Shown: one piece after another, positions 404 to 62,451 of the stretch | Numbering within the stretch: position 1 is the stretch's first letter | How the letters are laid out: each line of letters starts with the position of its first letter | DNA from: a virus | Lineage: Duplodnaviria > Caudoviricetes | Virus record (IMG/VR): IMGVR_UViG_3300042904_000073 | Span: 83 to 64,082 of that record | DNA length: 64,000 bases | Direction: 5' to 3' (one strand) | The notes under the pieces: generated by a model | The model's input: only the letters and a program-made list of their open reading frames with translations | Databases searched by the model: none | Told to the model about the DNA's origin: nothing | Translations under genes and position numbers: made by a program

Positions 404-732
404 TGAAGGAACCGCAAAAGAGCACGCCACCGGAAGGTTGGTTCGTCAGGAACGAGGTAGGCCACAGGGGTGATATTACCTTTACAGTGATGAAGATGGT
501 GCCGCGACAGCACCATCTACCGGCTGAAGAGACTGATCTGAAGCTTACAGTAAAGCGAGAAGCCGGATGGTTCCACAATCTGGTGTATGGCTCGTTCAAC
601 GAGCGAGTTGCCAGTGCCATGAGTAGGGCTCAAAAGAGGGCTTGGTCTCTGAACCAGGACTACAAGGCTTCCATGCAGCTTGCCTACGACATGATGCACC
701 AGACGAAGAAGGCGAACCCGCATGACGACTAG
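403..732 (+). CDS. Hypothetical protein
   Basis: ATG overlaps the terL stop (TAATG); end overlaps the portal start. Confidence 0.6.
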   Translation: MKEPQKSTPPEGWFVRNEVGHRGDITFTVMKMVPRQHHLPAEETDLKLTVKREAGWFHNLVYGSFNERVASAMSRAQKRAWSLNQDYKASMQLAYDMMHQTKKANPHDD

Positions 733-18643: not shown

Positions 18644-19072
18644 ATGATCCGAGAAACGAAGATCACCGGCCAGGAGGCATTCATCCGAATGGCCGGTGAT
18701 CCCGACGTTGTAAAGCGAACAATCAAGCAGTCGCAGGCTGCGTTCCCGCAAGATCGCTGGCAGCAGTCCTGCCACTTCGCCTGGAAGCTACTCTACCTGT
18801 CAGGCATCGAAACTGCGCTCGGCAGCCATCGCGGCGGCTTCGCGCAGAACCTTGGACAGCGCGGATGGAAGGCTGTCAACGTCAAGTCGCCCGGCTGCCT
18901 GAAGGCTGGCGACATAGCCATGACCGAGGAAGGCTACGTCAGCGTGGTCGCCAAGGTGGACACGGCCGGTAATTTCTGGCACGCCGTTGACGTTGGCTGT
19001 GAAGAAGGCAAAGCCGTGCGCCATGAAGGTGTCGGTAGATACCTCTTCCTGCGTCCTGGCGGCGGCGGGTGA
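18644..19072 (+). CDS. Small CHAP/NlpC-P60-like protein, possibly degenerate
   Basis: SCHFAW...KAGDIA....GYVSVV resembles C...PGD....GHV with His replaced by Tyr. Confidence 0.35.
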   Translation: MIRETKITGQEAFIRMAGDPDVVKRTIKQSQAAFPQDRWQQSCHFAWKLLYLSGIETALGSHRGGFAQNLGQRGWKAVNVKSPGCLKAGDIAMTEEGYVSVVAKVDTAGNFWHAVDVGCEEGKAVRHEGVGRYLFLRPGGGG

Positions 19073-19350: not shown

Positions 19351-21888
19351 ATGCCTATACCTGCTGGCTACTGTGATACCGGCGAACGCTTCACCATCCA
19401 AGCGAGCGGCACCATCACGATCAACTATGGTCCTTGTGGGCCTGACGCTGACGTGACGAGCCAGCAGGTATTCGCGTCTGCCTGGGTGACCCCGGCTCCA
19501 CAGATCGAGATTAAGCACCGGATCAACGGAACTACGGGCTTGGTCGAAGTCTTCGCTGACAAGCCGTGGGCTCCGCTAGACCCAAGCAAGGTAATCATCG
19601 ACACGGTGTCGCAGTCGTACCGTGGCGTCGTGAACGCCGATTACTCGGTGACCGCTGGACCGTTCTACCTGCTTGCGAACTCCTGTGGCACGCTTCATTG
19701 GTGGGCAAGCCCTGACACCCTCGTTTGCTACTACATCGAAGGCCAGGGTGCTTGCCGGGCGATGTATAGCGGCTGGACACAGATGGTCAACGGCATCGGC
19801 GCTACGTCCTTCCAGGGTAGCCGAGCCAATATGCCAGGTGGCTGTGACGAGAGCAAGCCGTTCCTGCGAATCAGTCACACGGACAACCTCGGCAAGCTGG
19901 CTGCACAGGCCGACGCAACCAGTTGCGGCAGCCACGTCTGCGTGCGCAAGGATGGCACGAACCTGAAGTGGTGGGTGCAAAGCCCAACCAGCGGGCCGGA
20001 AGTGCGAAGCTGGCAGGCTGGCAACATGACCGCTGAAGCCGCCGCTTGGTGTCAGGCTCGCATCTGCGTACTCGACTCTTGCGACAACACGCCGATCCCT
20101 GGTGCCACGGTCGAGATTTACGATCAGTGTAATCCCCTTACTGGAAATATGGGCGGCGGTGCCTACTTGCTCTCTTCCGGTGTTACCGGGAGCGACGGTT
20201 GTGTTACCTTGCCCTACAAGGGCATGTATGCCGTATTCAGCGTTTACAAGCAGTGTTATCAGAGTGTAGGAGGCAGCGGTTTCGGCTCCGTGGGTGCCTG
20301 TAGCTGTGCTGGTAATGACGGTAGCAGTAGGCCAGGACTCACTGCATTCCTGCATCCGATGCTGCGCGTCGGCTCTGGCTGTTCAGGGCTGAAGCCGTGC
20401 GTCTGCCCTGACGGTACTACCTGGAACGAGCAGTGCCAAATCTGTCAACCTGAATGCGGCCCCTGCCAGACCTGGGTTCAGTCTCACTGCCGGTGTGAGA
20501 CTATGGACACCTCGTGTGACGGTGGCCGCATCTTCTCTTGGGACGACTGCGAATGCCACTGCCCTGAAGGGTCGATCCTTTGCAACGACTACTGCATTTA
20601 CGAGCCTAGTAAACCTCCGTGTTACGAGGAGCTTAACGGGCGCTGGAACGGCACGACCTGCAATTGGGAAGTAGATGATCCGGTCTTGCCGCTATGCGGC
20701 GAGGAGCGGGCTTGCACCTGGCGCGAGAACCTGTGTCAGTGGTGCTGCATCTTCCACGACGGCAACCCGCAGAATACCGGGTGCCCTTCCGGCTACACCT
20801 GGGATGCCGAGAAGAAGGACTGCGTAATCCCCGAGCCGGGAAAGGGCTGCCCGCCTGGCTACACCTGGAGTGAAGACGCCGACGACTGTATCAGCGTGAC
20901 AACCGCTGAAAAGCTATGTCCTGTCGGCTTCTGGGATAGCAACCGTGGTCAGTGCGTTACTTCGGGCTCGCCCGGTTCAAAGCTCTGCGGCAGCACCGGC
21001 TCTTGGGATAACACCTGCGGGCAATGCACGTATCCGATGCCGTGTCCAGAGGATCACGTCTACGACATTTCTACGTGCGAATGCGTTCTTGATTGTCCTG
21101 ACGGTGAAGAGGTTTGCAACGGCGTTTGCATTCAACGTCCAGAACAGCCTCCCTGTTTCTCGGAGCGTAATTGTCACTGGTCAACTACTGAATGCAAATG
21201 GGTGTGTGACGACGCTACTTGCGAGCCTAATCATTACTATGATTGGGACGAATGCGAATGCTCGCCTGTTGATAAGAAGTCGAAGTATTCAGGAAACATA
21301 GACACCTGCTTTAGCTTCGATATGACGAAGCTGCACTGGTTCCGTAGTGGCGTATCTCCTGACACGAAGCTCTACGTTGACACTTTCCATCTTGATGTAA
21401 GCCAACCCGGAAATTGGGTTCTGGAAAGCACCGCTGAAATTATAGATAAGGGCGCGTCACCGTCGATCATCAAATGGGGGAGAGACGGGTTCATGTCGTT
21501 GGCCTACCTCGACCTGGACAGCGGGAACGCAATGTCCCAACTGTGGGACCCGCTCAACGGGGCAAGGAACATGGTAACGGTAGCCGGTGGCGCAAAGTGG
21601 GTTGACCACAAGATGGACAAGTGGGGCAGGACCGTGTTCGCGGTCTATACCGGCGACTGGTCCGTCTGCATCGGCAAGCTCGGCGGCGACGGCAAGCTGG
21701 TCATTTCGGCCGGGCCGGTGCTGATGCAGGACAAAGACGGGAACGGCATGAACGGTGCCGAATCTCAAGGTTCACTCCTACCTCTCCCCGATGGTGGAAT
21801 GCTATTCACGTTCACTGACAAGAGCGGGAATTCAAAGCAAGTCCACTGCCGAATGCTGAATGACGATGGGAGCGGGGAGTGGAACTAG
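19351..21888 (+). CDS. Cys-rich repeat tail-region protein
   Basis: Many CPxGxxWxxxxCxC units in a 845-aa ORF within the tail module. Confidence 0.8.
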   Translation: MPIPAGYCDTGERFTIQASGTITINYGPCGPDADVTSQQVFASAWVTPAPQIEIKHRINGTTGLVEVFADKPWAPLDPSKVIIDTVSQSYRGVVNADYSVTAGPFYLLANSCGTLHWWASPDTLVCYYIEGQGACRAMYSGWTQMVNGIGATSFQGSRANMPGGCDESKPFLRISHTDNLGKLAAQADATSCGSHVCVRKDGTNLKWWVQSPTSGPEVRSWQAGNMTAEAAAWCQARICVLDSCDNTPIPGATVEIYDQCNPLTGNMGGGAYLLSSGVTGSDGCVTLPYKGMYAVFSVYKQCYQSVGGSGFGSVGACSCAGNDGSSRPGLTAFLHPMLRVGSGCSGLKPCVCPDGTTWNEQCQICQPECGPCQTWVQSHCRCETMDTSCDGGRIFSWDDCECHCPEGSILCNDYCIYEPSKPPCYEELNGRWNGTTCNWEVDDPVLPLCGEERACTWRENLCQWCCIFHDGNPQNTGCPSGYTWDAEKKDCVIPEPGKGCPPGYTWSEDADDCISVTTAEKLCPVGFWDSNRGQCVTSGSPGSKLCGSTGSWDNTCGQCTYPMPCPEDHVYDISTCECVLDCPDGEEVCNGVCIQRPEQPPCFSERNCHWSTTECKWVCDDATCEPNHYYDWDECECSPVDKKSKYSGNIDTCFSFDMTKLHWFRSGVSPDTKLYVDTFHLDVSQPGNWVLESTAEIIDKGASPSIIKWGRDGFMSLAYLDLDSGNAMSQLWDPLNGARNMVTVAGGAKWVDHKMDKWGRTVFAVYTGDWSVCIGKLGGDGKLVISAGPVLMQDKDGNGMNGAESQGSLLPLPDGGMLFTFTDKSGNSKQVHCRMLNDDGSGEWN

Positions 21889-24102
21889 ATGGCTGAAAGG
21901 GTAGTCCCGATCCTTCAGATTCGCCGTTTCAGGAACGGGTCCGAGCCTTACTTCGGACCCGGTTCTGACTTCGGCTATTCCTGGTACTCTTCGCTTAACA
22001 ATGAGTTCAAGTTCGGTAGCGTAAGTTACCTGTCCGTGGACTCTGTTCTAGGCGCACCGATCTACGCTCCGATGGTGGAATACATCGGCACGGAACGGAT
22101 GCGTACCGCCAACCGGGATAACGGGCACGACGTGCCGATTGGCCTCGTGATGAAGCCGTTCGTCATTCCCAAAGACGTTGGGGAATGGGAAACGCTGCCT
22201 GGCGACCTGGGTGTCTGGGAGACTCGCACGTCTTTCATGAACCCTCCCGTGGAGCTTCTGACGCAGAACTTCCAGGGTGTTGACAGCGCGGGAGACACGG
22301 TAATCGCTCCGTGGGGCTCGCAGTCCACCTACTCCCATCCTGGCCTGCCGAGCTTCGCGTTCACGATCCTGCCTGCGGCGGTCTCGCCGGATTACAACCC
22401 GTTCGTCGGTGGCGTCCCCTACAGCCAGGTTGCCTGGTCTGGCGGCAAGTGGGCTATCCGGTTCTTCAATCACGGCAACCCGGTACTGATGAAGTCCTTC
22501 GGCGGCATCATGGTCCCGCTGATGGAGCTTGGCTCACCGGCCCGAATGAACAACGGAGACAACCCCGATTTGATCGAAGGCATCGTGCGGCACCAGCGGG
22601 GAGCCCTGATGATTTCGATGGACCACGGGGCAACCTACGACGTGTGGTGGGAGCCGACCAACACTCCGGTCTCTTGCCCGTCTGGCAAGTACCAGTTCAC
22701 CGGCTTGGGGATGGCGGCGGCTCTAGGCATTCACCAGGTGGCCTACGGCGACGATCAGAACCACGGACACTACGACAGCCCGAAGCTGCCAATGGAGCGA
22801 CTTCGCGCCGGGTCGCCAACGCTTGTCAACTTCAGATACGCGAACGCGACGAACACGGCGGTCACCGTCCAGAACATCGCGCCGACCACGACCACGACCT
22901 ACATGCAATACCGGATCAACATGACGGCCGGTGTTGTGAACACGTCGCACTTTGCGTATTACTACTCCCCCGAATCGTATGCCGTGGAGTTGGCGTATCC
23001 GACCACGCCAAGCCTCTACTTCCCGATGCACGACAACGGGGCGACGTTCGAGGGGCGTATTCAACAGCTTACCATTGACAAGCCCTTTGAACTCGATGAA
23101 GCGACCTGCTCTTTCACCTGCCGCTACACCGTAGACGAAGGCGGGCCGCAAGGTAGCTTCGGGCTCAATCTGATTCAGGTCTGGGGTGGTTGGCAGTATG
23201 ACGACGGGTCGAACGACGTTGATCTGCTGTTCACCGGCTACCTGGTTGATCCGAAGGTTACCCAGGTCAACAGCAACTACATCACCGTCAGCTTCACGGC
23301 TCACTCTACAGCCTTGCGCCCGAAGCGGATGCAGTGGCGAGACAGTAACGCCTCGCCATACGATGGCTTGACGCCCAACCAGGCACTCTTGAAGTGGGCC
23401 GTCTCGATGGGTCTCAACGCCAGCTTCCTCGCCTTCGACAGCACCGGCCGGGGAGACAACGTGCTGCTGCCCGCCGAGTCGCCGGAAGAACCTGCTTACG
23501 TGCCCGTGGTCGGCGAGGCTCGATGGGACATTATGGCGAAGATCGCCGAGTATGCCCGTCTGGAGCTTGGCGTAATGAACAACGGCTCGTATGCTCTCTT
23601 CCCGAGCGACACGTTCGTGTTGACGCCTTACACCTGGGACGCCGCGCCGGTCAACAACAACACCTCGCACATTGAGAGCATCAGCCTGGAACAGCGCGTG
23701 CTAGACACCTTCACCGGAGTTTTAGTGCGCGGGCGAACAATGTGGAATGCTCAAATAGCCGCTTGGATATACGACAGTGACGCCGAGACCAATATCTTCA
23801 GTAGTAGGTTCCGACCCTGGCCGGAATGGACTGTGGAGACTATCGACCATCCGGTAACTCCGCAGTGGCTTGGGCAGGTAGCTCTTGGCCTGGCCTGGAA
23901 CAAGATCGTCCCCAACTTCGAGCTTACCTGGAAGGGCGAGCTTGCCACCTTCGTTTCCAGGCGTCACGCCGTCTGGGTGCGAGGCACGACGGTAGGGGCG
24001 GGCAACTTGGTCAAGGTCGGCGTGCTATCGCTACGGCACACCTTTGACCGGAACGACCCGATGATGGCGTGGACCGAGGTGCGCGGAAGGAAGCTCTCCT
24101 AA
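21889..24102 (+). CDS. Tail tip or hub (Tal-like) protein
   Basis: IQVWGG..Y....LFTGY hub motif; position. Confidence 0.65.
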   Translation: MAERVVPILQIRRFRNGSEPYFGPGSDFGYSWYSSLNNEFKFGSVSYLSVDSVLGAPIYAPMVEYIGTERMRTANRDNGHDVPIGLVMKPFVIPKDVGEWETLPGDLGVWETRTSFMNPPVELLTQNFQGVDSAGDTVIAPWGSQSTYSHPGLPSFAFTILPAAVSPDYNPFVGGVPYSQVAWSGGKWAIRFFNHGNPVLMKSFGGIMVPLMELGSPARMNNGDNPDLIEGIVRHQRGALMISMDHGATYDVWWEPTNTPVSCPSGKYQFTGLGMAAALGIHQVAYGDDQNHGHYDSPKLPMERLRAGSPTLVNFRYANATNTAVTVQNIAPTTTTTYMQYRINMTAGVVNTSHFAYYYSPESYAVELAYPTTPSLYFPMHDNGATFEGRIQQLTIDKPFELDEATCSFTCRYTVDEGGPQGSFGLNLIQVWGGWQYDDGSNDVDLLFTGYLVDPKVTQVNSNYITVSFTAHSTALRPKRMQWRDSNASPYDGLTPNQALLKWAVSMGLNASFLAFDSTGRGDNVLLPAESPEEPAYVPVVGEARWDIMAKIAEYARLELGVMNNGSYALFPSDTFVLTPYTWDAAPVNNNTSHIESISLEQRVLDTFTGVLVRGRTMWNAQIAAWIYDSDAETNIFSSRFRPWPEWTVETIDHPVTPQWLGQVALGLAWNKIVPNFELTWKGELATFVSRRHAVWVRGTTVGAGNLVKVGVLSLRHTFDRNDPMMAWTEVRGRKLS

Positions 24103-28204: not shown

Positions 28205-28231
28205 TCCCAATAATCCCGCTGGAGGTATCCC

Positions 28232-28588: not shown

Positions 28589-28939
28589 ATGGAGGCAGGC
28601 ACCATGACGGTTAAACAGGCAGCGATGGCACTTACCGGGCAACCCGCCGAAATAGGCGAGGAATCCAAGATCAGCGTCAAGCTAATCCTGGCCTGCCTGG
28701 CACTCTTCTTGAGCGGCTTTGGCCTGTTCCTTACGGTGGTTTCTTTCTACCACTCGTCGGCAGTCAACACGATCAAGGAGAACCAGAAGGAGAGCATCGC
28801 CGCACTGCGCGGAGAGCGCGACCGGGTGCTGGAGAACTATCCCACCTGGAGAGACATTAACCGAATGCGAGACGAGGATCGCAAGTACCTGGACAGTCAG
28901 TTCGGGGCCATTCGTGACGAAATCAGAAGGAGTAGGTAA
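28589..28939 (+). CDS. Membrane protein, holin- or spanin-like
   Basis: One TM helix followed by a coiled coil; in the lysis region. Confidence 0.5.
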   Translation: MEAGTMTVKQAAMALTGQPAEIGEESKISVKLILACLALFLSGFGLFLTVVSFYHSSAVNTIKENQKESIAALRGERDRVLENYPTWRDINRMRDEDRKYLDSQFGAIRDEIRRSR

Positions 28940-29139
28940 TGCCCGTTCACAAGCTGCGGATCGTCGTAACGCTCACCTGCATTCTGGTCACCCTGATTAC
29001 GGGAGCCGTGGTGAGCTACAGCCTGGGACCCGACGCACGCGACCGGCGTGCCCTGCATCGGGAAGAGGCTGGCGGGATGATCGTCGTGGACGGAACGCTC
29101 CTGGAATTCGGGCACGACCCCCTAGAAATCAGCACGTAA
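28939..29139 (+). CDS. Small membrane protein
   Basis: N-terminal hydrophobic helix; TAATG coupling. Confidence 0.5.
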   Translation: MPVHKLRIVVTLTCILVTLITGAVVSYSLGPDARDRRALHREEAGGMIVVDGTLLEFGHDPLEIST

Positions 29140-29250: not shown

Positions 29251-29676
29251 ATGAAGAAAGCGTTATCCCAACTGATCGTATGGGTCTTTGCACCCGTCTT
29301 GAACAGCCGCCGCGATGCCCTGTCTCTGGGCCGGGTCCTGCTGTTCCTCTACACCCTGGCGCTCGTCTGGTCGCTGGTGCTGAACCTGCCGCGCCTGGTA
29401 GCTGTGCAGGCGAACCCGGTAGTGGTCACTGCCCTGGTGTTCCTGCTGGTCGTGGTCTTCCTGGTCCTGGCCGTCTACTGCTTCGGCGACAAACCGTGGG
29501 TCCGAGAGACGGTGCTGCTGCTTGCCAACAAGGCGAGCTTGAGTAGTCCTGGAGACTATGCGGGCGTGACCCGCTACGTCCAGGATCACGCCAAGCCAGC
29601 AGGCCCTAACCCCTACGGCGGGCCGGAAAATGTCAGCCCACAGGCTGAAACGTCAGAGTCCGAGCCTGGTATATGA
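29251..29676 (+). CDS. Putative holin
   Basis: 2-3 TM helices; AAGGAG SD before ATG 29251; upstream of the endolysin. Confidence 0.6.
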   Translation: MKKALSQLIVWVFAPVLNSRRDALSLGRVLLFLYTLALVWSLVLNLPRLVAVQANPVVVTALVFLLVVVFLVLAVYCFGDKPWVRETVLLLANKASLSSPGDYAGVTRYVQDHAKPAGPNPYGGPENVSPQAETSESEPGI

Positions 29677-29749: not shown

Positions 29750-30049
29750 GTGCCACCTACCCCATACGCAACAATCTACGTTGTAGCCGGTGAATCGGTT
29801 GAAGGGCTCAACCTCTTCGTGGCCGCAGACCCGGATGTACCGGCCGTCTTGTTCGACTTGACCGGACTGACTGCACTGTCCGAGTTAGATATAGCGGAGT
29901 TGCTACGAGTTGTCAAGCGCGGACAGCGCGTCTATCTGCGACTGGTTCACGAATCACAGCCGTGGCGGACTCTTTCCCAGAAGCAGTGTCTAGTAAACGG
30001 GCTGGAGCCAAATGTGTTCCAGTTCATGAAAAACTCAACAAAGGAGTAG
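29750..30049 (+). CDS. Hypothetical protein
   Basis: AGGAG SD; ends just before the endolysin. Confidence 0.55.
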   Translation: MPPTPYATIYVVAGESVEGLNLFVAADPDVPAVLFDLTGLTALSELDIAELLRVVKRGQRVYLRLVHESQPWRTLSQKQCLVNGLEPNVFQFMKNSTKE

Positions 30050-30052
30050 CCA

Positions 30053-30907
30053 ATGTCTCGTGTTATCCCCGCTTCCTGGATGCCCGACGCTCGCATGGTC
30101 GGCATCGTCAATCACTGGACGGCCGGTCCCTACCAGGCTACGTCGCTCGATAAGCGCGACTACCACATCATCATCGAGGGTGACGGTCGCCTGGTGCGCG
30201 GCAACCATGCCATCCCCGACAACATGAGCGTCCACGATGGCGACTACGCTCCGCACTGTGGACGCCACAATACGGGCTACATCGGCGTCTCCGTGGCGTG
30301 CATGGCCGGTGCCATCGAAGTCCCGTTCTACGCGGGCAAGTCCCCCATGACGAAGAAGCAGTGGGACGTGATGATGGCTGTGAACGCCGACCTGTGCGAG
30401 CGGTACGGCATTCCGGTCACCCCCAAGACCCTCTGCGGCCACGGTGCCATCTATGGGCACTTCGGCGAGGCGAACCTGAAGGGCAAGTGGGACCCGCTGC
30501 GGCTCCCGTGGGACAAGGGCTTGAGCAAGACGGACGCCGACCGGCTGATCCGAGTAGAGACCAGCAGGCTCATGGACGGGTCGAAGAGTCCGGTCCTGCC
30601 CGCCGAAGACCTGAAGCCGATCCTCGTCAACATGAACGGGGTCACGATCAGCGACGACGCCTTCAACGAGAAGAACAAGGTCTGGGTGCCGCTCCGGGTG
30701 CTTGCCGAACCGATGGGTTGTCGGATCGTGGACACGGATGGCAGGACGGTCCTGGTCACGGACAAGACGGGCAAGCCCCATCACCTGGACTTCCAGATCA
30801 AGGGCGGGGTCGGCTTCGTGAAGGTCGGCGACCTCCGCGAGCAGGTAGGCGGCATCGCCACGGAGTGGAACGGAATCCACCGGATTCTCAAGGTAACCCT
30901 GGTTTAG
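30053..30907 (+). CDS. Endolysin: N-acetylmuramoyl-L-alanine amidase with copper-amine-oxidase-N-like C-terminal domain
   Basis: HWTAG, YHIII, H....NTG.IGVS; C-terminal VWVPLR.LAE..G. Confidence 0.85.
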   Translation: MSRVIPASWMPDARMVGIVNHWTAGPYQATSLDKRDYHIIIEGDGRLVRGNHAIPDNMSVHDGDYAPHCGRHNTGYIGVSVACMAGAIEVPFYAGKSPMTKKQWDVMMAVNADLCERYGIPVTPKTLCGHGAIYGHFGEANLKGKWDPLRLPWDKGLSKTDADRLIRVETSRLMDGSKSPVLPAEDLKPILVNMNGVTISDDAFNEKNKVWVPLRVLAEPMGCRIVDTDGRTVLVTDKTGKPHHLDFQIKGGVGFVKVGDLREQVGGIATEWNGIHRILKVTLV

Positions 30908-30920
30908 CAAACGAACGAGG

Positions 30921-30931
30921 TGTGGTATCCT
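30921..30931 (+). promoter_or_regulatory. Extended -10 promoter for the putative sRNA
   Basis: TGTG-G-TATCCT; -35 is poor; predicted start at about 30937. Confidence 0.5.
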
Positions 30932-30936
30932 GGTGT

Positions 30937-31010
30937 GGGATAACACAAAACCTCTTAACAGGCACGGCAAGCTCCAGCGCATCGGGGCTCGCCGTGCCTG
31001 TCTTTTTTTT
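30937..31010 (+). ncRNA. Putative trans-acting antisense sRNA (seed GGGAUAAC) ending in an intrinsic terminator
   Basis: Unstructured 5' GGGATAACACAAAACCTCTT, then a ~17-bp stem (30958-31001) and T8; seed complementary to nine start-proximal sites. Confidence 0.6.
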
Positions 31011-31182
31011 GCAATATCTAAAGACTAACGGAACTCTGAAATGATCCGAAATAAGTTACTACTGGCCTGGTATATGACCAGTAGCTAGTAGAGTTGGCGT
31101 CCGCTGCCCTGGTCTTCAACTCTTCTGGCAAGTAGCACTACTACCTACCTGCTTCCGCTGCCCCGGAAGCCTGGAGTAATGA

Positions 31183-31827
31183 ATGACCGCAGCTACCTGC
31201 GGCAGGAGTGTGCCCTCCTCGCCGCTTTCTCTTGCGCACACAAGCAACCAGGCCGTATCAGTAAAACCGGCCGAGCCCGACCTTGATACGGCTGTCAACT
31301 ATGCCATCCAGGAAGCTCGCCGGTACTGTCGCAAGAACCCCGGCGTAGACGAAGGCGCTGCGGAAAGCGGGGCCATTCAGGGAGCCTGGGACGCCGTAAA
31401 GGACTACGACCCCAAGCGGCCGGGCTTCGAGGGTAAGGTCGCATCCTGGGAGACCTACCTGTTCAACATGGTCCGGTGGGGCATCCTGAAAGCCCTGCGG
31501 CCGACCCAGGCCAAGAGCAGAGCGGCCTTTGACGAGGAGTTCACCATCGTCCCGCTCGACAGTCCCACCACTCGGGTAGACAACGGCCTGGTTCACGAAC
31601 TGGTCGCCGACCCCGCCTCCAATCAGGGCTTCGCCACCATCGACATGGCGAACCTGCTGTCCCTGATCCCCAAGATGGAACACACCATCCTCTTCCGGCG
31701 CTACGGCCTGGAGCAATCCTGCAACGAGGTAGCCCGCAGCCTCGGCGGCGACTGGACCCACATGAAGGTCTGGCGCATGGAGCAGAAGGGTCTACGGCGT
31801 CTCCGTATCCTGCTCGGTCTCGCGTAG
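31183..31827 (+). CDS. RNA polymerase sigma factor (sigma70 family, regions 2 and 4)
   Basis: G.WDAV..YDP.R....W.TY....VRW; C-terminal HTH RRYGL..S..EVA..LG...V..ME..GL.RLR. Confidence 0.85.
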   Translation: MTAATCGRSVPSSPLSLAHTSNQAVSVKPAEPDLDTAVNYAIQEARRYCRKNPGVDEGAAESGAIQGAWDAVKDYDPKRPGFEGKVASWETYLFNMVRWGILKALRPTQAKSRAAFDEEFTIVPLDSPTTRVDNGLVHELVADPASNQGFATIDMANLLSLIPKMEHTILFRRYGLEQSCNEVARSLGGDWTHMKVWRMEQKGLRRLRILLGLA

Positions 31828-31850: not shown

Positions 31851-31884
31851 GAAGCCCTGGTCCTAGCGGCCAGGGCTTCTTCTT
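31851..31884. terminator. Terminator between convergent arms
   Basis: GAAGCCCTGG...CCAGGGCTTC-TTCTT. Confidence 0.65.
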
Positions 31885-32383: not shown

Positions 32384-32412
32384 ATCTTATCAGTGTTTAC
32401 TTCGGTTGTCAA
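32384..32412 (-). promoter_or_regulatory. Sigma70-type promoter
   Basis: TTGACA-17-TAAGAT with TG extension. Confidence 0.7.
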
Positions 32413-32846
32413 GACTGTCTTGCTGCCTTGGCCTCCGAGAGCATCTGCTGGAAGGTGTCGTCGTTCTCGAAGAACTCCAGTAGCTCCGTCAGTAGCGCCT
32501 GCTCCTCCGGGAGAAGCGGCTGCCCGTCGCTCTGGTCGAGGCCGTCCTGGTTGATGTTCCAGAGGGTCACGGCCGACCGGCGCAGGAGTTGACGCTGCTT
32601 GCGCTTCACCTCGTCTTCCGACTGTGACAGCCGGTGAACGTGGAGCTTCAGTTCGCGGTACTGACGCTGCTTGATCGTGAGTGCCCATTTGGCGCGAGTG
32701 CGCCAGTCGTCAACATCAGGGCTGCGCTCGAATTTGCGCTCGGAAAGCTGCGCCTGAATGTCCTGGATTTCGCCGAGGATCAGGTCACGCAGGTTCTCGG
32801 CTTCGGGCAGGGATAACTTGCTTACTTCGACTTCGTTTACAATCAC
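32409..32846 (-). CDS. Hypothetical coiled-coil protein
   Basis: GGAG SD with GTG start. Confidence 0.6.
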   Translation of the reverse strand: MIVNEVEVSKLSLPEAENLRDLILGEIQDIQAQLSERKFERSPDVDDWRTRAKWALTIKQRQYRELKLHVHRLSQSEDEVKRKQRQLLRRSAVTLWNINQDGLDQSDGQPLLPEEQALLTELLEFFENDDTFQQMLSEAKAARQS

Positions 32847-32941: not shown

Positions 32942-33883
32942 TTACACGAAGGTGGGCATTTCGATCCGGCCTTGGGTCAGGCGCTCGGGCATCTTCGTGA
33001 TGGTCTCGCCCGTGATTTCCTTACGGTGCTGAATCCAGCCGAGGAACGGGCCGCTGCGCACTCGCTGGTCATACGAGGGCTTGGCTACGTGTTCAAACGG
33101 GCTGGTGTGGCGCGGATCGTTCGGCGTCCACGTCTCTGACTTACCGTACGGAGGGTAGAGCAGCTTGGCGTAGGTATCAAGGTCCTTGGCCTGGATGCGC
33201 AGTCCATCGTGGTTCAGGGTAGACACCCGGCAGCAGCGAGCCGTGGAACACTTCTTGAGCAGTTCCCACCATTGCGGCGAGCCCTGCGCGAACCGCTCCG
33301 ACGCCTCGTAGTAGTCCTGCTCGACCACGTAGGGCAGGTGCCACTCGTGGTACTTCAGGCGCTTGGGGCGACTCTCCACGTAGGCCAGGTAGAGCATCCA
33401 GGCGATCTTCTGGAACTCGGGCTGCGCGTCAGGGTGAGCCCGCAGGCCGAAGAAGTTGGGCAGCGCATCGCCGGTCATGGTCAGCACTACGGTGATCCAC
33501 GACCACGGCTCCAGGATGCGGTTCACGACCTGCTTGTGGGCACCGAGCTTCCACAGGATGAACGCGACGAGCAGCGCCGGGAACCGGGCTCCATACCATA
33601 GTTGCGCGAACAGCCAGCGCAGGATCGGGTGAACCTCGTTCCGCGCCTGCATACCCCCCTGGTTCTGCCCCCAATGGACGAACCCGGCCGGATGCTTCAG
33701 GACGGCTTCCAGGACCTTCCTGGTCGGCGTAGCGCGGCTGCTCTGCGCGTTGCGGGCCGAGGCCCGGTGCGTCATGATTTCGGCGTGGATGAAGCGCGGG
33801 TAGGTCGCTTCCATCGTCACGATTTCGGTGTTGTCCGGTGACTTGCTGTGCGCCACGATACGAGCGCGGTATCCGGTGTGCAT
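32942..33883 (-). CDS. thyX: Flavin-dependent thymidylate synthase
   Basis: PRFIHAEIMTHR...RNAQSSRA, HKQVVNR.LEPW, LR.HPDAQPE, H.SPFEH; start MHTGY with GAGG SD. Confidence 0.9.
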   Translation of the reverse strand: MHTGYRARIVAHSKSPDNTEIVTMEATYPRFIHAEIMTHRASARNAQSSRATPTRKVLEAVLKHPAGFVHWGQNQGGMQARNEVHPILRWLFAQLWYGARFPALLVAFILWKLGAHKQVVNRILEPWSWITVVLTMTGDALPNFFGLRAHPDAQPEFQKIAWMLYLAYVESRPKRLKYHEWHLPYVVEQDYYEASERFAQGSPQWWELLKKCSTARCCRVSTLNHDGLRIQAKDLDTYAKLLYPPYGKSETWTPNDPRHTSPFEHVAKPSYDQRVRSGPFLGWIQHRKEITGETITKMPERLTQGRIEMPTFV

Positions 33884-33905
33884 GGGATAACTTCCTCTCT
33901 CTCGG

Positions 33906-35548: not shown

Positions 35549-35577
35549 ACTTTAGCAGACTTTACAACGGCTGTCAA
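35549..35577 (-). promoter_or_regulatory. Sigma70-type promoter
   Basis: TTGACA-17-TAAAGT with TG extension. Confidence 0.7.
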
Positions 35578-35580
35578 GAA

Positions 35581-38496
35581 CTACGAACAGCCGGTGCTGG
35601 TGCCGCAGTCGGGGCAGATGTAGCACTTCCCTGCGGGCTGCGTGATCGAATGGCACTCGGGACACTGCGGGCCGGTCAGGCAGGCAAAGGCGCTAGGCCT
35701 CGCCATTTCCCGCTCCATCATGTCCGTCACGATGGACGCTGCTCGGTGAAGGGCTGCTTCCCGATCCATGCCTTCGGGCAGGTTGATCGTGATTACCGGA
35801 GCAGTCCTGCCGCTACTCTGCTCCGGGGTCCCGAAACGCAGGTTGAGCCACCGGAAGATGTAGTCGAGGATCGACTTGGCCTGCGGAATGTCCTGGTTGC
35901 CGGTCCAGCCGCTCGGCTCGAAGCGCATGTGGCTGTACTTGTCGATCATCTTGGAGAGCGGCACGCCGTATTGCAGGCCGAGGCTCACAGCCGTGGCGAA
36001 CCCGTCTGCGAATCCGGCCACGGTCGAACCTTCCTTGCTCATGGTGATGAACAGTTCGCCCGGCGTGCCGTCTTCGTAGAGCCCCACGGTCACGTAGCCT
36101 TCCACCCCGCCAATGTCGAACTTGTGGGTGATGGCGTGGCGCTCGCGGGGCAGCTTCCGGCGTACCGGCGCTCCGATCCCCGAGAGACGGGCTTCCAGTT
36201 CCTTGATGCGGTCCCGAAGCTCCTGGGTCTCCCCGTCGTCGGTGATCCCTACCAGGGTCTCGGCGTCCTGCTTCTTGACTTCGAGAGGCTGGCTCCGCTT
36301 GCAGCCGTCGCGGTAGATGGCTACGCACTTGACACCGAGCTTCCAGGCCTGATAGTAGGCCTGCTCAATGTCCTCCACCGTGGCCGTGTTCGGCATGTTC
36401 ACGGTCTTGGAGATTGACATTGACAGGAAAGGCTGGATGGCTCCGAGCATCTTCATGTGCCCCTGCCACGAGATAGTGCGGAAAGCATCACTCGGAGCGA
36501 AGGCACAGTCGAACACCGGCAGGTGTTGCGGCTTCAGGTAGACGCAGTTGTCCATCGCCCCCGTGTCGGCGACCCATCCCAGGATGGCTACTTGCTCGCC
36601 TTCCGAGTAACCGAGAGCCTTCAGCGCGTCGGCCACGGCCTGGTTCGCCATCTTCTCCACGCCACCGCCGACGAGGTTCTTGTAGGCGACGAGGCTAATA
36701 CACGGCTCGATGCCCGTGGTGTCGCAGTCCATGATGAACGAGATCGTGCCGGTGGGAGCCTCCAGAGTCACGTTCGCGTTGCGGAAGCCGAACTGACGGC
36801 CGAGATCGAGAGCAGCATCCCAGAGTACGTCGCCGTCCGCGTGAAGCTGACGAGCGATGGGATGATCCAGGCTGACCCCGGCGTTCATTGCCTGTGCCCC
36901 GGTATGGGCTCTAGCGTGGCGACCGAGCACGCCAAGCATCGCATACCAGTTGCGATCCCACTCCGCGAACGGCCCGCCGCATGCGCCTGCGATGGTAGCA
37001 CTGCCCGCGTAAGCCCGCGCCGTCAGCGTGGAGCAGAGCATGGCGGCGATACCGCGCCCCTGGTCGCTGTCGTAAGCAAGCCCGAGCTTCATCAACATCG
37101 CACCCAGGTCGCAGTGCCCGAGCCCCAGGTTACGGAAAACCTTCGTCCAGTAAGCGATGTCTCCCGTGGGGAAGTCGCCGCCGGCCACGATGATTTCCAT
37201 CGCCAGGATCGCGATGTCTACGGTGTGCAGGTAGCCTGTCGTGTCGAAGCCGTAGTTGCCCGGCTCGCCGGTCAGGTACTTCGTCAGCCGGATGCTTGCC
37301 AGGTTGCAGGACGTGTTGTCCCGCGAGATGTACTCGCTGCACGGATTCGACGCCCAGATCCAGAACGAGTTCGGGCAGGTGTTCCCGGAGTTGATATGGT
37401 CATCGAACTGGACACCGGGGTCGCCGCAGAACCAGGTCGCCTCGGCGATTTCGCGTAGCACCTGGCGGGCCGAATACTCGGCGCACTGGTGGCCCGTCTT
37501 GACATACTTCGTCCAGTAGGTGACGCCGCGCTCATAGGCTTCCATGAACTCCTCGGTGATCCGCACCGAGTGATTGGCATTCTGGAAGTCCACGAGCGAG
37601 TAGGCGTTGCCCGGCGCGTTGAACATCACCGGGTAGCCTGCGTCGATCAGCGTGTGCGCTACCTTCTCGGCGGCTGACTTGGCGCGGATGAAGCCCGGCG
37701 TGCCGTCGTTGTTCTCCAGAATATCCGGGTGGTCGCAGCGCATAACGACCATCTTGGCCGCTCGCCGGGTCGTGCCCCCGCTCTTGATCTGACCGGCGTT
37801 GCAGTCGGCGACCTTCATGAACGACAGCGGCCCGCTGGCTCGCCCGCCGAGGGACAGGCTCTCGCGGCTGGACCGGATGCGGCTCACGTCGGCACCGGAC
37901 CCGGAACCCCGCTTGAAGATGCGCGTCTCAACCGTGTACCAGTTGGACAGGTCGTCCAGGGTATCCTCGACCGGGACGATGAAGCAGGCGCTCCCCTGCT
38001 GCGCGATTCCGTCGATGCCGAAGTTGAACCAGACGGGCGAGTTGAACGCGAAGTGCTGGTTCAGCAGCATGAAGGACAGTTCGTCGTAGTGCGCATCCCG
38101 GTCGGCGCTGCTGGCGTAGTAGCCGTAGTCGTCGCCCCATCCGGTGATCCGCTGCACGATCCGGCGCACCAGCACCTCGAAGTCCTGGACGCCGTTGCCA
38201 TTGTCGCAGACCTTCAGATACTTCGCGGCCACGATCTTACGGGCACGCTCCGAGAAGAACGCCGGGAACCGGCACTTTACCACCTTGGCCTCGTCGCCGG
38301 GCAGGGTTACGTCCGTGGTCTCCCATTGGATTGCACTGTAAGGGTCGGTATGCGCGGACGTGTAATGCCGCTTGACCGTGACGCCGGGCCAGGTCTTGCC
38401 GCCTGGGAAATGATCCTTGCACATGCCCGGCTGGTACTTCAGCCACTCCGGGATAACAACGTCTTCTCTGCCGATGTTCGGCTTGGTTGATTGCAT
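35581..38496 (-). CDS. nrdJ: Class II (B12-dependent) ribonucleotide reductase with TSCPD and Zn-ribbon C-terminus
   Basis: FNSPVWFN, SACFI, GGTTRRAAKM, NPCSE, CNLAS, APTGTIS, SISKTVNMP, YRDG. Confidence 0.95.
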   Translation of the reverse strand: MQSTKPNIGREDVVIPEWLKYQPGMCKDHFPGGKTWPGVTVKRHYTSAHTDPYSAIQWETTDVTLPGDEAKVVKCRFPAFFSERARKIVAAKYLKVCDNGNGVQDFEVLVRRIVQRITGWGDDYGYYASSADRDAHYDELSFMLLNQHFAFNSPVWFNFGIDGIAQQGSACFIVPVEDTLDDLSNWYTVETRIFKRGSGSGADVSRIRSSRESLSLGGRASGPLSFMKVADCNAGQIKSGGTTRRAAKMVVMRCDHPDILENNDGTPGFIRAKSAAEKVAHTLIDAGYPVMFNAPGNAYSLVDFQNANHSVRITEEFMEAYERGVTYWTKYVKTGHQCAEYSARQVLREIAEATWFCGDPGVQFDDHINSGNTCPNSFWIWASNPCSEYISRDNTSCNLASIRLTKYLTGEPGNYGFDTTGYLHTVDIAILAMEIIVAGGDFPTGDIAYWTKVFRNLGLGHCDLGAMLMKLGLAYDSDQGRGIAAMLCSTLTARAYAGSATIAGACGGPFAEWDRNWYAMLGVLGRHARAHTGAQAMNAGVSLDHPIARQLHADGDVLWDAALDLGRQFGFRNANVTLEAPTGTISFIMDCDTTGIEPCISLVAYKNLVGGGVEKMANQAVADALKALGYSEGEQVAILGWVADTGAMDNCVYLKPQHLPVFDCAFAPSDAFRTISWQGHMKMLGAIQPFLSMSISKTVNMPNTATVEDIEQAYYQAWKLGVKCVAIYRDGCKRSQPLEVKKQDAETLVGITDDGETQELRDRIKELEARLSGIGAPVRRKLPRERHAITHKFDIGGVEGYVTVGLYEDGTPGELFITMSKEGSTVAGFADGFATAVSLGLQYGVPLSKMIDKYSHMRFEPSGWTGNQDIPQAKSILDYIFRWLNLRFGTPEQSSGRTAPVITINLPEGMDREAALHRAASIVTDMMEREMARPSAFACLTGPQCPECHSITQPAGKCYICPDCGTSTGCS

Positions 38497-43184: not shown

Positions 43185-43213
43185 AGTATAACGGCCTTGA
43201 ACACTAATGTCAA
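43185..43213 (-). promoter_or_regulatory. Sigma70-type promoter
   Basis: TTGACA-17-TATACT. Confidence 0.75.
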
Positions 43214-45383: not shown

Positions 45384-45627
45384 GGGTAACACTCTCCTCT
45401 CGGGCGGGACGCTTACTTCGCCTCGCCTTCTGAATACTACCGCCGTTGTCGCCCTTTGTCAAGAGCTTTCTCAAGCGGTCGATTTCCGCGAAGGCCGAGT
45501 TCAAGTCACCCTTCGCGTGGTTCTGGAAGTTGATGCGGTGCCCGTAGTTCGTCGGGCACCGCTCCAGGTCTACCAGGCGCTTCCGCGCAGCTTCCTCTCC
45601 GGGGTATACCCGAACCTTAACTGCCAT
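45376..45627 (-). CDS. Small hypothetical protein
   Basis: Overlaps the MTase stop; L.AEIDRLR motif. Confidence 0.45.
   Translation of the reverse strand: MAVKVRVYPGEEAARKRLVDLERCPTNYGHRINFQNHAKGDLNSAFAEIDRLRKLLTKGDNGGSIQKARRSKRPAREESVTHE
45434..45462 (-). promoter_or_regulatory. Sigma70-type promoter
   Basis: TTGACA-17-TAGTAT. Confidence 0.65.
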
Positions 45628-46963: not shown

Positions 46964-46970
46964 GGGATAA

Positions 46971-47612
46971 CTACCTCGCGTGCCGGGATAGCTCCCAGGC
47001 TCGCCGTTCGATTAGGTGCAGCGCCTCGTTGACACGGGCGGCACGCTCGTTGCTTTGCAGGTGGACGACGTTGCGCCTGCCGTCCAGCATTCCCCGAACC
47101 AGCAGGTCGATCTGCTCTCGGAAGTAAGGCTTATCTTCCCGGCAGCCGTCAAGGTCGTTCGGGATATTCGGGGGCACGACCACGTAAATGCAGTCGATGC
47201 GGCCAAGCTGGCGCTGCACTACGTGGCGGCAGTGATCCAGGGTATCCCGTACCAGCGGATGGTCGCTGCGTCCCAGGTGCGCCACGGTGTAGGCGTAGAC
47301 CGAAACCGGGCTCCGGTCGGCGACTGCTGCGCCCACGGGCTCGTGCCGCTGGTGAGCCAGGTCCATGATCTGGCGCTGAACCTGCGCTATCTCCTGCGGG
47401 TCAAAGTCGCGGTAGCTGGCGTCAGCTTCCCACTCGTTGAACACCTCGCGCACCGGCTCTGCGATGGTGGGCAGGCCGAGGATGCGAGCCAGGGACTTCA
47501 GCAACGTGGACTTGCCCGTGCTGTGGGTCCCTTCCAGGATGATCTTGACCTGCTCACGCTTCAGGTGCCCGGCGAGCGCGGAGAAGTCATTGCCGCCTAC
47601 CATTGAGCCCAC
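46971..47612 (-). CDS. P-loop NMP kinase (AAA_28/NadR-like)
   Basis: EGTHSTGKSTL, E..R, ADRS.V...AY, DG.R. Confidence 0.8.
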   Translation of the reverse strand: MGSMVGGNDFSALAGHLKREQVKIILEGTHSTGKSTLLKSLARILGLPTIAEPVREVFNEWEADASYRDFDPQEIAQVQRQIMDLAHQRHEPVGAAVADRSPVSVYAYTVAHLGRSDHPLVRDTLDHCRHVVQRQLGRIDCIYVVVPPNIPNDLDGCREDKPYFREQIDLLVRGMLDGRRNVVHLQSNERAARVNEALHLIERRAWELSRHAR

Positions 47613-47992: not shown

Positions 47993-48006
47993 CTGGGATA
48001 ACGCTC

Positions 48007-49552: not shown

Positions 49553-49588
49553 GGGATAACCTACCTTTCTCTTCGTTGTCGATGTTGG

Positions 49589-49991: not shown

Positions 49992-50020
49992 ATGGTAGCA
50001 GGCTTCACAACGGTTGTCAA
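49992..50020 (-). promoter_or_regulatory. Sigma70-type promoter
   Basis: TTGACA-17-TACCAT with TG extension. Confidence 0.7.
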
Positions 50021-51009: not shown

Positions 51010-51668
51010 GCCGCTACCTTGTCCTTCTTGTTGGCCTGCTGCGCGGCTGCCCGATCCCGCAGGGTGTAGCCCATCCCCTGGAGCGCCCGGCGCACCTTGC
51101 CATGCTGGCCGCGCCCCCATCCCAGGTTGTCGGCGATCTTGGACGGGCCGTGCCCGGCTTCATAATCGCTCTTGATGCGCTCGCGGGTAGCTTCCGGCAA
51201 GCTCGCGGCGTACTTGCGCCGGTCTTCCTGGTATCGGTCGCCCGGCTTCTTGATCGTGACGCCCATGCTGCGCAGGAGCCCGGCGATTGTGGCAGCACTG
51301 CTCCGGTAGTCGCGGGCGATCAGTTCGCAGCCTTCGCCGCCTTCGTACCGCTCCTTGATCTTGGTCTTCTCCTCGGCGCTGAACTCGATGGGCTTCACCT
51401 TCGTGGCCTCGCCGCGAGCCTTGTTCATGATGCCGGTGCGGGTGCCGTTGTACTGCGGAGCGTGGCGCACGTACTCCAGGAAGCTCTCCAGGGTAATGAG
51501 CTTCACGGGGCGGAAACCACGGCCAGGGATGATCTTCTCCTCGGCCTTCAGACGCGGTTCATCGCCTTCGGTCAGGCTGTAAATCCACTCGCGGGACTTG
51601 CCAAGCAAGGCGCTTGCCGTGGCTACGGTGATGAACCCGGTCGGGCTGTTATGGGGCTTTTCAGGCAT
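51006..51668 (-). CDS. Multi-HTH DNA-binding protein
   Basis: N-terminal excisionase-like HTH plus two Y..G.....IA HTH units. Confidence 0.7.
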   Translation of the reverse strand: MPEKPHNSPTGFITVATASALLGKSREWIYSLTEGDEPRLKAEEKIIPGRGFRPVKLITLESFLEYVRHAPQYNGTRTGIMNKARGEATKVKPIEFSAEEKTKIKERYEGGEGCELIARDYRSSAATIAGLLRSMGVTIKKPGDRYQEDRRKYAASLPEATRERIKSDYEAGHGPSKIADNLGWGRGQHGKVRRALQGMGYTLRDRAAAQQANKKDKVAA

Positions 51669-51750
51669 TACCTACTCCTTCTTTGAACTCACTGTCAACT
51701 CTAGTATGGACACGACGTGCCGCGAGTGTAACATGTCGTGTCCGAAATCG

Positions 51751-52747: not shown

Positions 52748-52777
52748 TTGACTTCGGCTGCCAACGTATGGTATCTT
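52748..52777 (+). promoter_or_regulatory. Sigma70-type promoter for the right arm
   Basis: TTGACT-18-TATCTT with TG extension. Confidence 0.55.
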
Positions 52778-52859
52778 CCTTGTGCGGCGTTGTCAACGTC
52801 GAAATTTGAAAAGGAAGGGCTCCGGCCGGAGTATACCGACTGGAGAGGAGGTTGAGTGA

Positions 52860-54882: not shown

Positions 54883-55246
54883 CGTGATGGAAGCCCTCTT
54901 CCGGTCGGAGAAGGCTAAAGTCGATGTTGACAAAGCCCTTCAAGGACTGATATGGTCTTCACTGTCGGATGGTAGGCACTACCTGGTCAAGCTCGGTGAA
55001 ATGCGGCGGCAGAACCCGGAGTTCCCGAACGATCAGGTGGTGTTCGCCAGGACCGGCGTAATCCTGCTCACCAACCCGTACGAGGTGGAGCCCGGCGAAT
55101 GCCTGACGTGGGAGTCGCTGCACGGCAACAACGCGACCCAGGTACGGCCCAACCTGTTCCGGCTCAAGCCGAACCACGACATGCCGATCCTGGACTTCCA
55201 GCCCACGATGTTCGAGAACCAGGTTCGCTGTTGGGAGCGAGTGTAA
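54794..55246 (+). CDS. Hypothetical protein
   Basis: Typical codon bias; in the operon. Confidence 0.55.
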   Translation: MLLNNENADDQSGKKTGMIYAQAAYTATADVMEALFRSEKAKVDVDKALQGLIWSSLSDGRHYLVKLGEMRRQNPEFPNDQVVFARTGVILLTNPYEVEPGECLTWESLHGNNATQVRPNLFRLKPNHDMPILDFQPTMFENQVRCWERV

Positions 55247-57221: not shown

Positions 57222-57336
57222 GTTCAACCTGGCCCGGCCGTAAGCCGATAGTCAAAAGGATGGTGAAGGGCTTGTCTAAACGGCAAGCCCTTCACTGTCT
57301 CAAACAAGAATTAGCCAGGCAGGAGGTTATCCCACA

Positions 57337-62390: not shown

Positions 62391-62413
62391 GTCGCGTTTA
62401 ACCATCCACGGTC

Positions 62414-62451
62414 GGAATAACGATCTGGAATAACGATCTGGAATAACCATC
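62414..62451. repeat. Three tandem 13-bp repeats GGAATAACGATCT in an origin-like non-coding region
   Basis: Two exact copies and one variant (GGAATAACCATC). Confidence 0.85.

Follow-up and report, generated by a model that had tools for sequence, protein, structure and literature searches.

What is encoded in the 100 nt that separate the last lysis gene of an uncultured phage from the terminator of its late operon, and why do they hold the exact complement of an octamer that recurs at the starts of the phage's genes? The phage (Duplodnaviria; Caudoviricetes) is represented by IMG/VR record IMGVR_UViG_3300042904_000073, of which we analysed positions 83 to 64,082 (the window, 64,000 nt, in whose numbering all coordinates are given). 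The window covers nearly all of the 64,082-base viral contig, which has a GC content of 0.60 and an estimated completeness of ~80%. An earlier inspection of the letters (the sequence-only reading) had taken the site for a trans-acting small RNA (sRNA) whose 5′ seed co-represses replication, nucleotide and lysis genes. Our analysis, likewise computational, leads to a related and tentative view: the locus could be an antisense riboregulator embedded in a 3′ untranslated region (3′UTR), with thyX as its founding target, a reading that we place somewhat short of an even chance. The full scheme, in which a 5′ seed would govern a regulon of ten of the phage's own genes with the help of a masking switch, seems doubtful to us.

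The octamer GTTATCCC (the word) occurs 12 times on the two strands of the window, as against 0.93 ± 0.96 expected, a count reached in none of 100 shuffles, and an order-3 Markov model ranks it first among the window's octamers (z 15.2). Nine sense-strand copies are placed at -11, -10, -8, -8, -8, +9, +11, +29 and +39 of predicted start codons, which agrees with the nine genes counted earlier, and a tenth start-proximal copy is found at +13 of a 133-amino-acid (aa) gene on L231 (102-503). This overlapping contig of the same phage (8,116 bases, 99.74% identity over 5,395 bases) reaches 2,721 bases past the window and does not span the 30908-31010 locus. Eight of the 12 copies fall inside start windows from -25 to +45, which make up 4,550 of the 128,000 strand positions, and a ninth straddles +45. 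Copies within coding sequence are read in all three frames (GTT ATC CC, G TTA TCC C and GT TAT CCC), and word copies contain two of the only 13 TTA codons found among 1,524 leucine codons; this use of three reading frames and of rare codons argues that selection acts on the nucleotides and not on the protein. The base after the word is A in seven of the ten start-proximal copies.

The complement of the word, GGGATAAC, stands at 30937-30944, 30 nt past the endolysin stop codon. It is followed by ACAAAA and then by CCTCTT (GGGATAACACAAAACCTCTT runs from 30937), and the locus as a whole lies between the stop codon at 30905-30907 and the terminator at 30958-31010, which is the placement expected of a 3′UTR-embedded sRNA. 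This is the sole complement copy in a non-coding stretch transcribed in that sense; scanning such stretches with G:U pairs allowed (GGGRTRRY) brought up no further exact GGGATAAC. The arms of the terminator hairpin (30958-30975 and 30984-31001) are 18 nt long and 89% complementary, enclose an 8-nt loop and form 17 bp in the predicted fold. An RNA of 74 nt begun at the seed folds at -34.2 kcal/mol (z -6.23; equal stability in none of 200 shuffles); the centroid structure leaves its first 21 nt unpaired, and the 8-nt seed has a probability of 0.19 of being unpaired. The elements noted in the sequence-only reading, from TGTGGTATCCT at 30921-30931 to T8 at 31003-31010, are thus all present, and the anatomy that it drew from them (free 5′ end, ~17-bp stem, U8, ~74 nt in total) is recovered in sequence and predicted fold.

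The complementarity has a simple origin, since the locus repeats part of the thyX start region in inverted orientation. When thyX is aligned with the minus strand of 30908-30957, three indels delete the ATG and break the frame. The resemblance extends beyond the word: the 32 nt that follow it align to thyX with a score of 28, against 8-16 for the other 10 copies, and scores of at least 24 have a probability of 5e-4 in 20,000 random windows. The gene was assigned by database matches (Thy1, E 2.1e-8; phrog_85, E 1e-55; the public gene call P0122 has the same start), and its N-terminus MHTGY is kept in the closest homologs, from which it follows that the copy derives from thyX and not the reverse. 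As a consequence of the inversion, the plus-strand RNA reads anti-start-region, anti-word GGGAUAAC and anti-Shine-Dalgarno (anti-SD) CCUCUU, and then the terminator. RNA of plus-strand 30908-30957 is antisense to thyX mRNA from -17 to +33, with a predicted duplex of 38 bp and -53.1 kcal/mol; the energies of 500 shuffles averaged -22.1 (sd 3.8) and went no lower than -33.9, and the minimum over 549 control windows was -38.9. The arrangement is not cis-antisense, as thyX, the best target, lies 2.9 kb from the locus and the opposite strand holds only a shadow open reading frame (ORF).

Divergence from thyX has also changed the folding of the locus. The halves of an inverted repeat were kept (GGTATCC ... 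GGATAAC) and outer pairs were gained, so that 30917-30954 folds as a hairpin, HP1, at -15.6 kcal/mol (z -3.19; 2 of 200 shuffles were as stable), which recurs in the 133-nt fold; the start region of thyX lacks stable structure (z +0.94). Because HP1 masks the seed in read-through RNA, a seed mechanism needs an internal promoter or processing. The sequence-only reading had offered the 3′ end of the late mRNA as a second source of the RNA, and this does not hold for the 3′UTR as such, where HP1 hides the seed completely.

Pairing with the other start regions was predicted with the 21-nt 5′ segment, a comparison that had been suggested earlier and that came out in favour of the candidate. The nine word-bearing starts rank 3rd to 10th and 16th of 65, at -19.1 to -13.1 kcal/mol, and values of -12 kcal/mol or lower are reached by 31% of starts versus 9.7% of 549 internal windows. 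Pairing runs beyond 8 nt only at the endolysin gene (10 nt, as had been claimed; GTGTTATCCC, 30060-30069) and at the ribonucleotide reductase gene (9 nt). The earlier suggestion that the downstream anti-SD segment might engage the SD of the targets is likewise matched by a predicted second helix between CCUCU and the SD at SD-proximal sites. Ten mRNAs are reported to pair with the 5′ domain of RybB, and an adenosine often flanks sRNA target sites on the 3′ side (PMC3495738). The endolysin gene (30053-30907, plus strand; Pfam Amidase_2, E 1.2e-12) has a public gene call, P0001 (270 aa), that begins 14 codons downstream of the ATG at 30053. Eleven homologs align through its N-terminus MSRVIPASWMP, and because they align from MSRVIP, the start at 30053 is right and the longer, word-containing form is real.

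An internal promoter at 30904-30931 is plausible but weak. TGTGGTATCCT reads TG-g-TATCCT, an extended -10 element with a hexamer match of 4/6 (including A2 and T6) that ends 5 nt ahead of the seed; the putative -35 element overlaps the endolysin stop codon. In the alignment with thyX, two derived substitutions account for TG and for the last T of the -10 element. The pattern TGNTANNNT is not enriched (37 in the window versus 40.6 expected over 128,000 strand positions), though it is rare per position, and for that reason one sited 5 nt before the seed is notable. In the phage's set of promoter-like sites TTGACA is perfect or nearly so, the spacer to TAnnnT measures 17-18 nt and half of the sites have TG; ten such sites lie in 40-60 kb where 3.4 ± 1.8 are expected. 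Sigma-70-type sites of the early region with a perfect TTGACA include those at 32384-32412, 35549-35577, 43185-43213, 45434-45462, 49992-50020, 52748-52796 and 54927-54956; the late block has no excess of them (3 versus 4.2 expected in 1-20 kb).

In the mechanism that we propose, the 100 nt from the stop codon of the endolysin gene to the terminator of the late operon would encode an antisense riboregulator aimed at translation starts, having arisen by inverted partial duplication of the thyX start region. The active species would most likely be a ~74-nt RNA begun at ~30937 from the internal extended -10 promoter or, alternatively, a processed 3′ fragment. In this short form GGGAUAAC would be a free 5′ seed, able to pair with GUUAUCCC at -11 to +39 of about ten genes: thyX, those for ribonucleotide reductase, primase-polymerase, the methylase-like and topoisomerase-like proteins and endolysin, and several small ORFs. 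At SD-proximal sites CCUCU would pair with the SD as well; 30S loading would be hindered and translation lowered. In the read-through late mRNA the seed would be locked in HP1 and inactive as a seed regulator, with invasion of thyX mRNA over 38 bp still possible. In the full scheme, which we judge less likely, the relative output of the internal promoter and of late read-through would decide when early genes are shut off and when lysis sets in. The elements are collected in the table.

Table. Elements of the locus downstream of the endolysin gene and start-region copies of the word (window coordinates; offsets refer to the start codon).
Feature	Position	Strand	Details
Putative sigma-70-type promoter	30904..30931	+	TTAGCA (4/6), 16-nt spacer, TG-g-TATCCT; predicted start ~30937-30938
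Endolysin TAG stop codon	30905..30907	+	Last gene of the structural and lysis block; from the ORF list
Inverted, diverged copy of the thyX translation-initiation region (SD, octamer, first ~10 codons)	30908..30957	+	Best non-self local alignment in the window
Hairpin HP1	30917..30954	+	Left arm, -10 element and degenerate sense word GGTATCCT; right arm, seed and anti-SD
Seed GGGAUAAC	30937..30944	+	Reverse complement of the start-region word GUUAUCCC; from the sequence
CCUCUU anti-SD segment	30951..30956	+	Second helix with AGAGG/GAGG of SD-proximal targets (duplex predictions)
Intrinsic terminator	30958..31010	+	17-bp stem-loop 30958-31001 and T8 31003-31010; ends the late/lysis operon and would form the 3′ end of the short RNA
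Word	29262..29269	+	+11 of a 141-aa lysis-cassette gene (start 29251); read GCG TTA TCC C, with the rare Leu codon TTA
Endolysin target site GUGUUAUCCC	30060..30069	+	+9 for the octamer; 10-nt match
Word	32810..32817	-	+29 of a 145-aa gene (GTG start 32846); uses TTA
thyX start region	33850..33900	-	ATG 33883; word at 33884-33891, offset -8
Word	38450..38457	-	+39 of the class II ribonucleotide reductase gene (start 38496)
Word	46964..46971	-	-8 of a DNA methylase-like gene (start 46963)
Word	47995..48002	-	-10 of a 131-aa gene, function unassigned (start 47992)
Word	49553..49560	-	-8 of a 330-aa gene, phrog_6247 labelled 'DNA topoisomerase' (start 49552)
Word	57326..57333	+	-11 of the primase/polymerase gene (start 57337)

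Several observations weigh against this proposal. The candidate promoter stays below the threshold of the promoter scan, and its -35 element matches at only four of six positions, compared with a perfect TTGACA at 17-18 nt in most other promoter-like sites of the phage; the promoter invoked in the sequence-only reading has an extended -10-like element correctly spaced for a start near 30937 and is weaker than these other sites. The top two duplex scores belong to starts without the word (45383 and 52860), which pair through the anti-SD alone. Pairing is held to 8 nt in seven of nine targets, and the single exact register of all copies would equally suit a protein-binding site. Target words are no more accessible than background octamers in start regions (percentiles 0.31-0.92), and pairing at +29 and +39 lies beyond the region where pairing normally blocks initiation. 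In the read-through 3′UTR form the probability of an unpaired seed is 0.0000. The complementarity has a trivial origin in the copying of the thyX start, a second start region has been duplicated in the same genome (19 nt, at starts 28939 and 51668), and no relative in which the locus could be compared was found in the phage, viral, metagenome and genome collections searched. The co-repressor seen in the sequence-only reading thus stands as to its anatomy and its exact complementarity to an octamer at nine to ten starts, and loses ground on its weak promoter and on the ordinary accessibility of its targets.

Several of these points are shared by the strongest alternative, which we rate only slightly below our proposal. 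Here the word GUUAUCCC(A) is an operator read by a RegA-like protein of phage or host, or by the ribosome, and the 30937 copy is a decaying thyX relic beside an ordinary late terminator, with no regulatory role; the RNA that such a reader would bind is GUUAUCCCA. The one exact octamer register in the ten start-proximal copies, extended at the random rate (2 of 9 by at least 1 nt), would fit such a reader, and the set of nucleotide-metabolism and replication genes resembles the RegA regulon. Pfam assigned a family at or above its curated cut-off to 13 of the 43 scanned proteins, so that an unrecognised RNA-binding protein could easily be hidden, and most small ORFs are unassigned. The searches for a reader came back empty all the same: a six-frame search of the 64,082-base, ~80% complete record for RegA (PF01818) gave nothing at E <= 1, six-frame searches of the record for CsrA and Hfq gave no match, and none of the 43 scanned proteins had an RNA-binding domain (a KH-like match at E 0.078 was too weak and was not used). 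Pfam and PHROGs scans for candidate protein regulators were negative, as were a PDB sequence search with four small word-bearing ORFs and an Atlas search with two of them.

The relic half of this alternative is credible because start-region sequence has been copied elsewhere in the genome, namely between 28925-28943 (plus strand) and 51664-51682 (minus strand), where unrelated genes have 19 identical nt (GAAGGAGTAGGTAATGCC plus one base). A copy that has lost its ATG and its frame, a promoter below threshold and targets of unraised accessibility are in keeping with decay. A relic would leave as coincidences, however, that a 9-mer and AGAGG were kept intact, that the antisense copy is placed directly before a terminator and that it acquired a correctly spaced TG-n-TAnnnT.

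An improbable explanation is that only the long form acts, the late-mRNA 3′UTR 30908-30957 or a fragment of it being a trans-antisense RNA dedicated to thyX. The ~38-bp duplex would cover SD, AUG and the first ten codons, thyX would be shut off or destabilised once late transcription begins, and the other eight to nine genes would share the word for another reason. The duplex lies far below the minima of both control sets, the thyX start region is free of structure, and 30908-30957 is certainly transcribed whenever the endolysin gene is, because it lies between stop codon and terminator. HP1 would have to open first, however, and the substitutions and the insertion that separate the locus from thyX strengthen HP1 and lower the complementarity to thyX; moreover, the enrichment of the word at other starts is left unexplained.

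It is more improbable still that the locus acts as DNA or as a mere structure, with the palindrome GGTATCC-N7-GGATAAC as the operator of a dimeric protein or HP1 as an accessory 3′ stabiliser or terminator hairpin. The pair of half-sites GTTATCC ... GGATACC is intact at 30937 as well as at thyX, around differing spacers (0 mismatches in both; background P = 0.004), HP1 is more stable than shuffles on both strands, and three 13-bp iterons at 62414-62451 are built on a similar word, GGAATAAC. A perfect second half-site accompanies only two of the 12 copies, those at 30937 and thyX, with a single mismatch in one other, on which ground we rejected a general palindromic operator; the right half-site of thyX is accounted for by the conserved residues G4-Y5. 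That all ten start-proximal copies are on the sense strand, at most ~50 nt from start codons, points to RNA.

A genuine minus-strand start at the 30937 copy (GTG at 30946), opening a gene antisense to the endolysin gene, can be dismissed: AAGAGG-N4-GTG followed by the word resembles other starts and a 315-aa ORF (30035-30982) is open in frame, but its GC contents at codon positions 1, 2 and 3 (0.83/0.43/0.60) are the mirror image of those of the well-supported endolysin gene (0.61/0.42/0.87), which marks it as a shadow frame and not a gene, and the start would lie directly after the terminator hairpin on the minus strand, inside a block of plus-strand transcription, in a sequence that relative to thyX has lost its ATG and its frame. 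The statement in the sequence-only reading that no minus-strand start codon accompanies this copy was therefore inexact, as the GTG at 30946-30944 overlaps it; its conclusion that the copy is not a translation start stands.

The word itself was also considered in other roles. As a promoter element it was rejected, since no upstream block is conserved and in five genes it is part of N-terminal coding sequence that is conserved or required. A role as an extended SD, paired with the 3′ tail of 16S rRNA, was rejected as well: the distance to the SD ranges over 0-3 nt, five copies come after the start codon, and two candidate host lineages have the standard tail GGAUCACCUCCUUU. An internal GGGAUAAC is found at about position 141 of the 16S genes of two Armatimonadota and is absent from the 16S gene of a Leptolyngbyaceae. 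Pairing of the word with it is not supported, as Armatimonadota are only one candidate host group, proposed from the relatives of the endolysin, and the region around position 141 is not known to contact mRNA. A literature search for the word yielded, among the matches listed, primer-type hits only. The two remaining copies (21005-21012 and 22115-22122) are antisense within two large plus-strand genes of the tail region; the late mRNA thus holds GGGAUAAC three times in all, with ~0.46 antisense copies expected, and the copy at 21004-21014 has the 11-mer TGGGATAACAC in common with the seed region. Variants with one mismatch also occur at gene starts: GGTATCCC at 28224-28231 (-8 of the gene at 28232) and GTGATCCC at 18696-18703 (+7, gene 18689) and 52864-52871 (+4, gene 52860).

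Relatives in which the locus could be compared were defined as loci with at least two genes in common with the window (at least three for ThyX loci). None that could be used was found in the phage database (DNA and TerL protein searches), in viral contigs (single proteins, alignments of endolysin, ThyX and TerL, and two exact DNA words), in metagenome contigs (ThyX alignment) or in genome contigs (TerL and endolysin alignments), and the only kin found is L231, which is the same phage. The only ThyX locus sharing at least three genes, L134, does so at 21-39% identity and is not close kin, and 10 matches to a 16-mer in viral contigs were set aside as chance, having differing GC and no hairpin. 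Closer relatives exist at the protein level, at 62% (P0123) and 57% (P0124) for ThyX, 54% (P0002) for the endolysin and 63% (P0243) for TerL. Cultured phages are very remote: TerL has 27.6% identity to that of a Microcystis phage, and the only match at the DNA level is that of the endolysin gene to a Rhizobium phage. Rfam covariance models gave no match at the gathering score over the whole window; within 30850-31250 only a miRNA hairpin model was matched, below threshold, by the stem of the terminator (27.6 bits versus a gathering score of 82).

Seed sRNAs with many targets are familiar from bacteria, and the candidate resembles the enterobacterial RybB and OmrA/B: it would be a short RNA whose 5′ segment, unpaired in the predicted centroid structure, serves as a seed, and it has a Rho-independent terminator with U tail. 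RybB, too, reaches many mRNAs at or near their starts through the same 7-8 nt, with a 3′ adenosine beside the target sites (PMC3495738). The candidate differs in being encoded by a phage and aimed at the phage's own genes, in lacking any sequence relationship (no Rfam match), in that all its candidate targets share one exact octamer, and in being known from sequence only. Among sRNAs that are embedded in a 3′UTR and share the mRNA terminator, DapZ and MicL arise from an internal promoter and CpxQ and SroC by processing. As in these, the locus lies between an upstream stop codon and a terminator, with the putative -35 element on the stop codon and the seed just 5′ of the terminator hairpin; unlike these, it would belong to a phage late operon with a putative promoter, and its read-through form masks the seed in an inverted-repeat hairpin of its own.

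RegA of phage T4 is a protein translational repressor that recognises a short RNA element at the starts of many early replication and nucleotide genes. A shared short element at the starts of several replication and nucleotide-metabolism genes, suited to one factor, is found here as well; the factor proposed is an RNA and not a protein, and a gene of the RegA family was not found in the record. The suggested origin recalls that of plant miRNA genes, which can be born by inverted duplication of target genes: the locus copies part of a target (thyX) in inverted orientation, and its complementarity is long to the founder and confined to the seed for the other targets. The setting is different, as a bacteriophage would here make a single-stranded seed RNA with an intrinsic terminator and without Dicer-type processing.

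Phages encode RNAs that pair with the ribosome-binding regions of phage mRNAs and block translation, namely sar of P22, OOP of lambda and c4 of P1/P7 (PMC12197685). Of these, c4 directs short complementary segments against a site not directly opposite; sar and OOP are cis-encoded opposite a single target, and c4 has one target operon, whereas the candidate is encoded 2.9 kb away from thyX and its reach would extend to about ten dispersed genes. Vibriophage VP882 encodes VpdS, a trans-acting sRNA reported to affect phage and host mRNA levels; VpdS is described as binding Hfq and competing with host sRNAs, and the accessible part of the review describes no start-region word shared across a phage regulon (PMC12197685). 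This 2025 review treats sar, OOP, aQ, c4, 24B_1, PreS, VpdS and an antisense RNA at the endolysin gene of PAK_P4, which are mostly cis-antisense, single-target or host-directed, and in its accessible part none of the RNAs described has a seed regulon over the phage's own start regions (PMC12197685). A phage-encoded seed sRNA with a self-regulon marked by one word may be a new kind of phage self-regulator. If the proposal were true, it would provide an RNA counterpart of T4 RegA, with temporal post-transcriptional control of replication, nucleotide and lysis genes; it would show that a bacterial-type sRNA can arise through inverted duplication of a target; and the combination of a start-region word with an antisense copy before a terminator would be a signature by which such regulons could be sought in uncultured phages. 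Even if the antisense copy is a relic, the start-region word by itself is a strong, unexplained translational signal.

The genes around the locus follow a simple layout in a composition-based map. A plus-strand block (1-30907) holds structural and lysis genes and ends with the Amidase_2 endolysin gene; it is followed by a solitary plus-strand gene (31183-31827), a minus-strand block running from 52386 to 32006 and a plus-strand block from 52860. The minus-strand and right-hand blocks encode a DnaE-type polymerase, a class II ribonucleotide reductase, ThyX, a dCTP deaminase, MazG, helicases and the primase-polymerase. A search of the window for tRNA and tmRNA genes found none. The endolysin has two domains (Amidase_2 and a Cu_amine_oxidN1-like C-terminus), and its full-length relatives (loci L232-L294) are mostly in metagenome-assembled genomes of Armatimonadota and cyanobacteria, a distribution that hints at the host range of the phage lineage; none of these loci has a second gene in common with the window. 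The intergenic region 62398-62640 is a candidate origin or operator region: its three tandem 13-bp units GGAATAACGATCT (62414-62451) are one base off the antisense word, and it also holds TTGACA and several copies of ATGGTTAAA/TTTAACCAT (5 in the window; z 17).

Lastly, the phage apparently encodes two diverged proteins of the sigma-70 family. One is the product of 620-1273 (plus strand) on L231, with a match to Sigma70_r4 (E 2.5e-7); the other is the 214-aa product of the solitary gene just past the terminator (31183-31827, plus strand), which has a weak PHROG sigma match (phrog_351, E 2.4e-5) and a region-2-like similarity to the first (blastp E 3e-4). A word-based search for homologs gave none. 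The sigma-like gene is separated from the late terminator by an AT-richer leader of 170 nt (31011-31182) that contains two 16-nt direct repeats, GCGTCCGCTGCCCTGG and GCTTCCGCTGCCCCGG (31097-31112 and 31151-31166), and hairpins that include 31058-31085 and the pairing of 31084-31096 with 31117-31129, with no match in Rfam. Between the convergent ends of the sigma-like gene and the minus-strand block lies a hairpin with perfect 10-bp arms (GAAGCCCTGG ... CCAGGGCTTC, 31851-31879), which is probably a bidirectional terminator.

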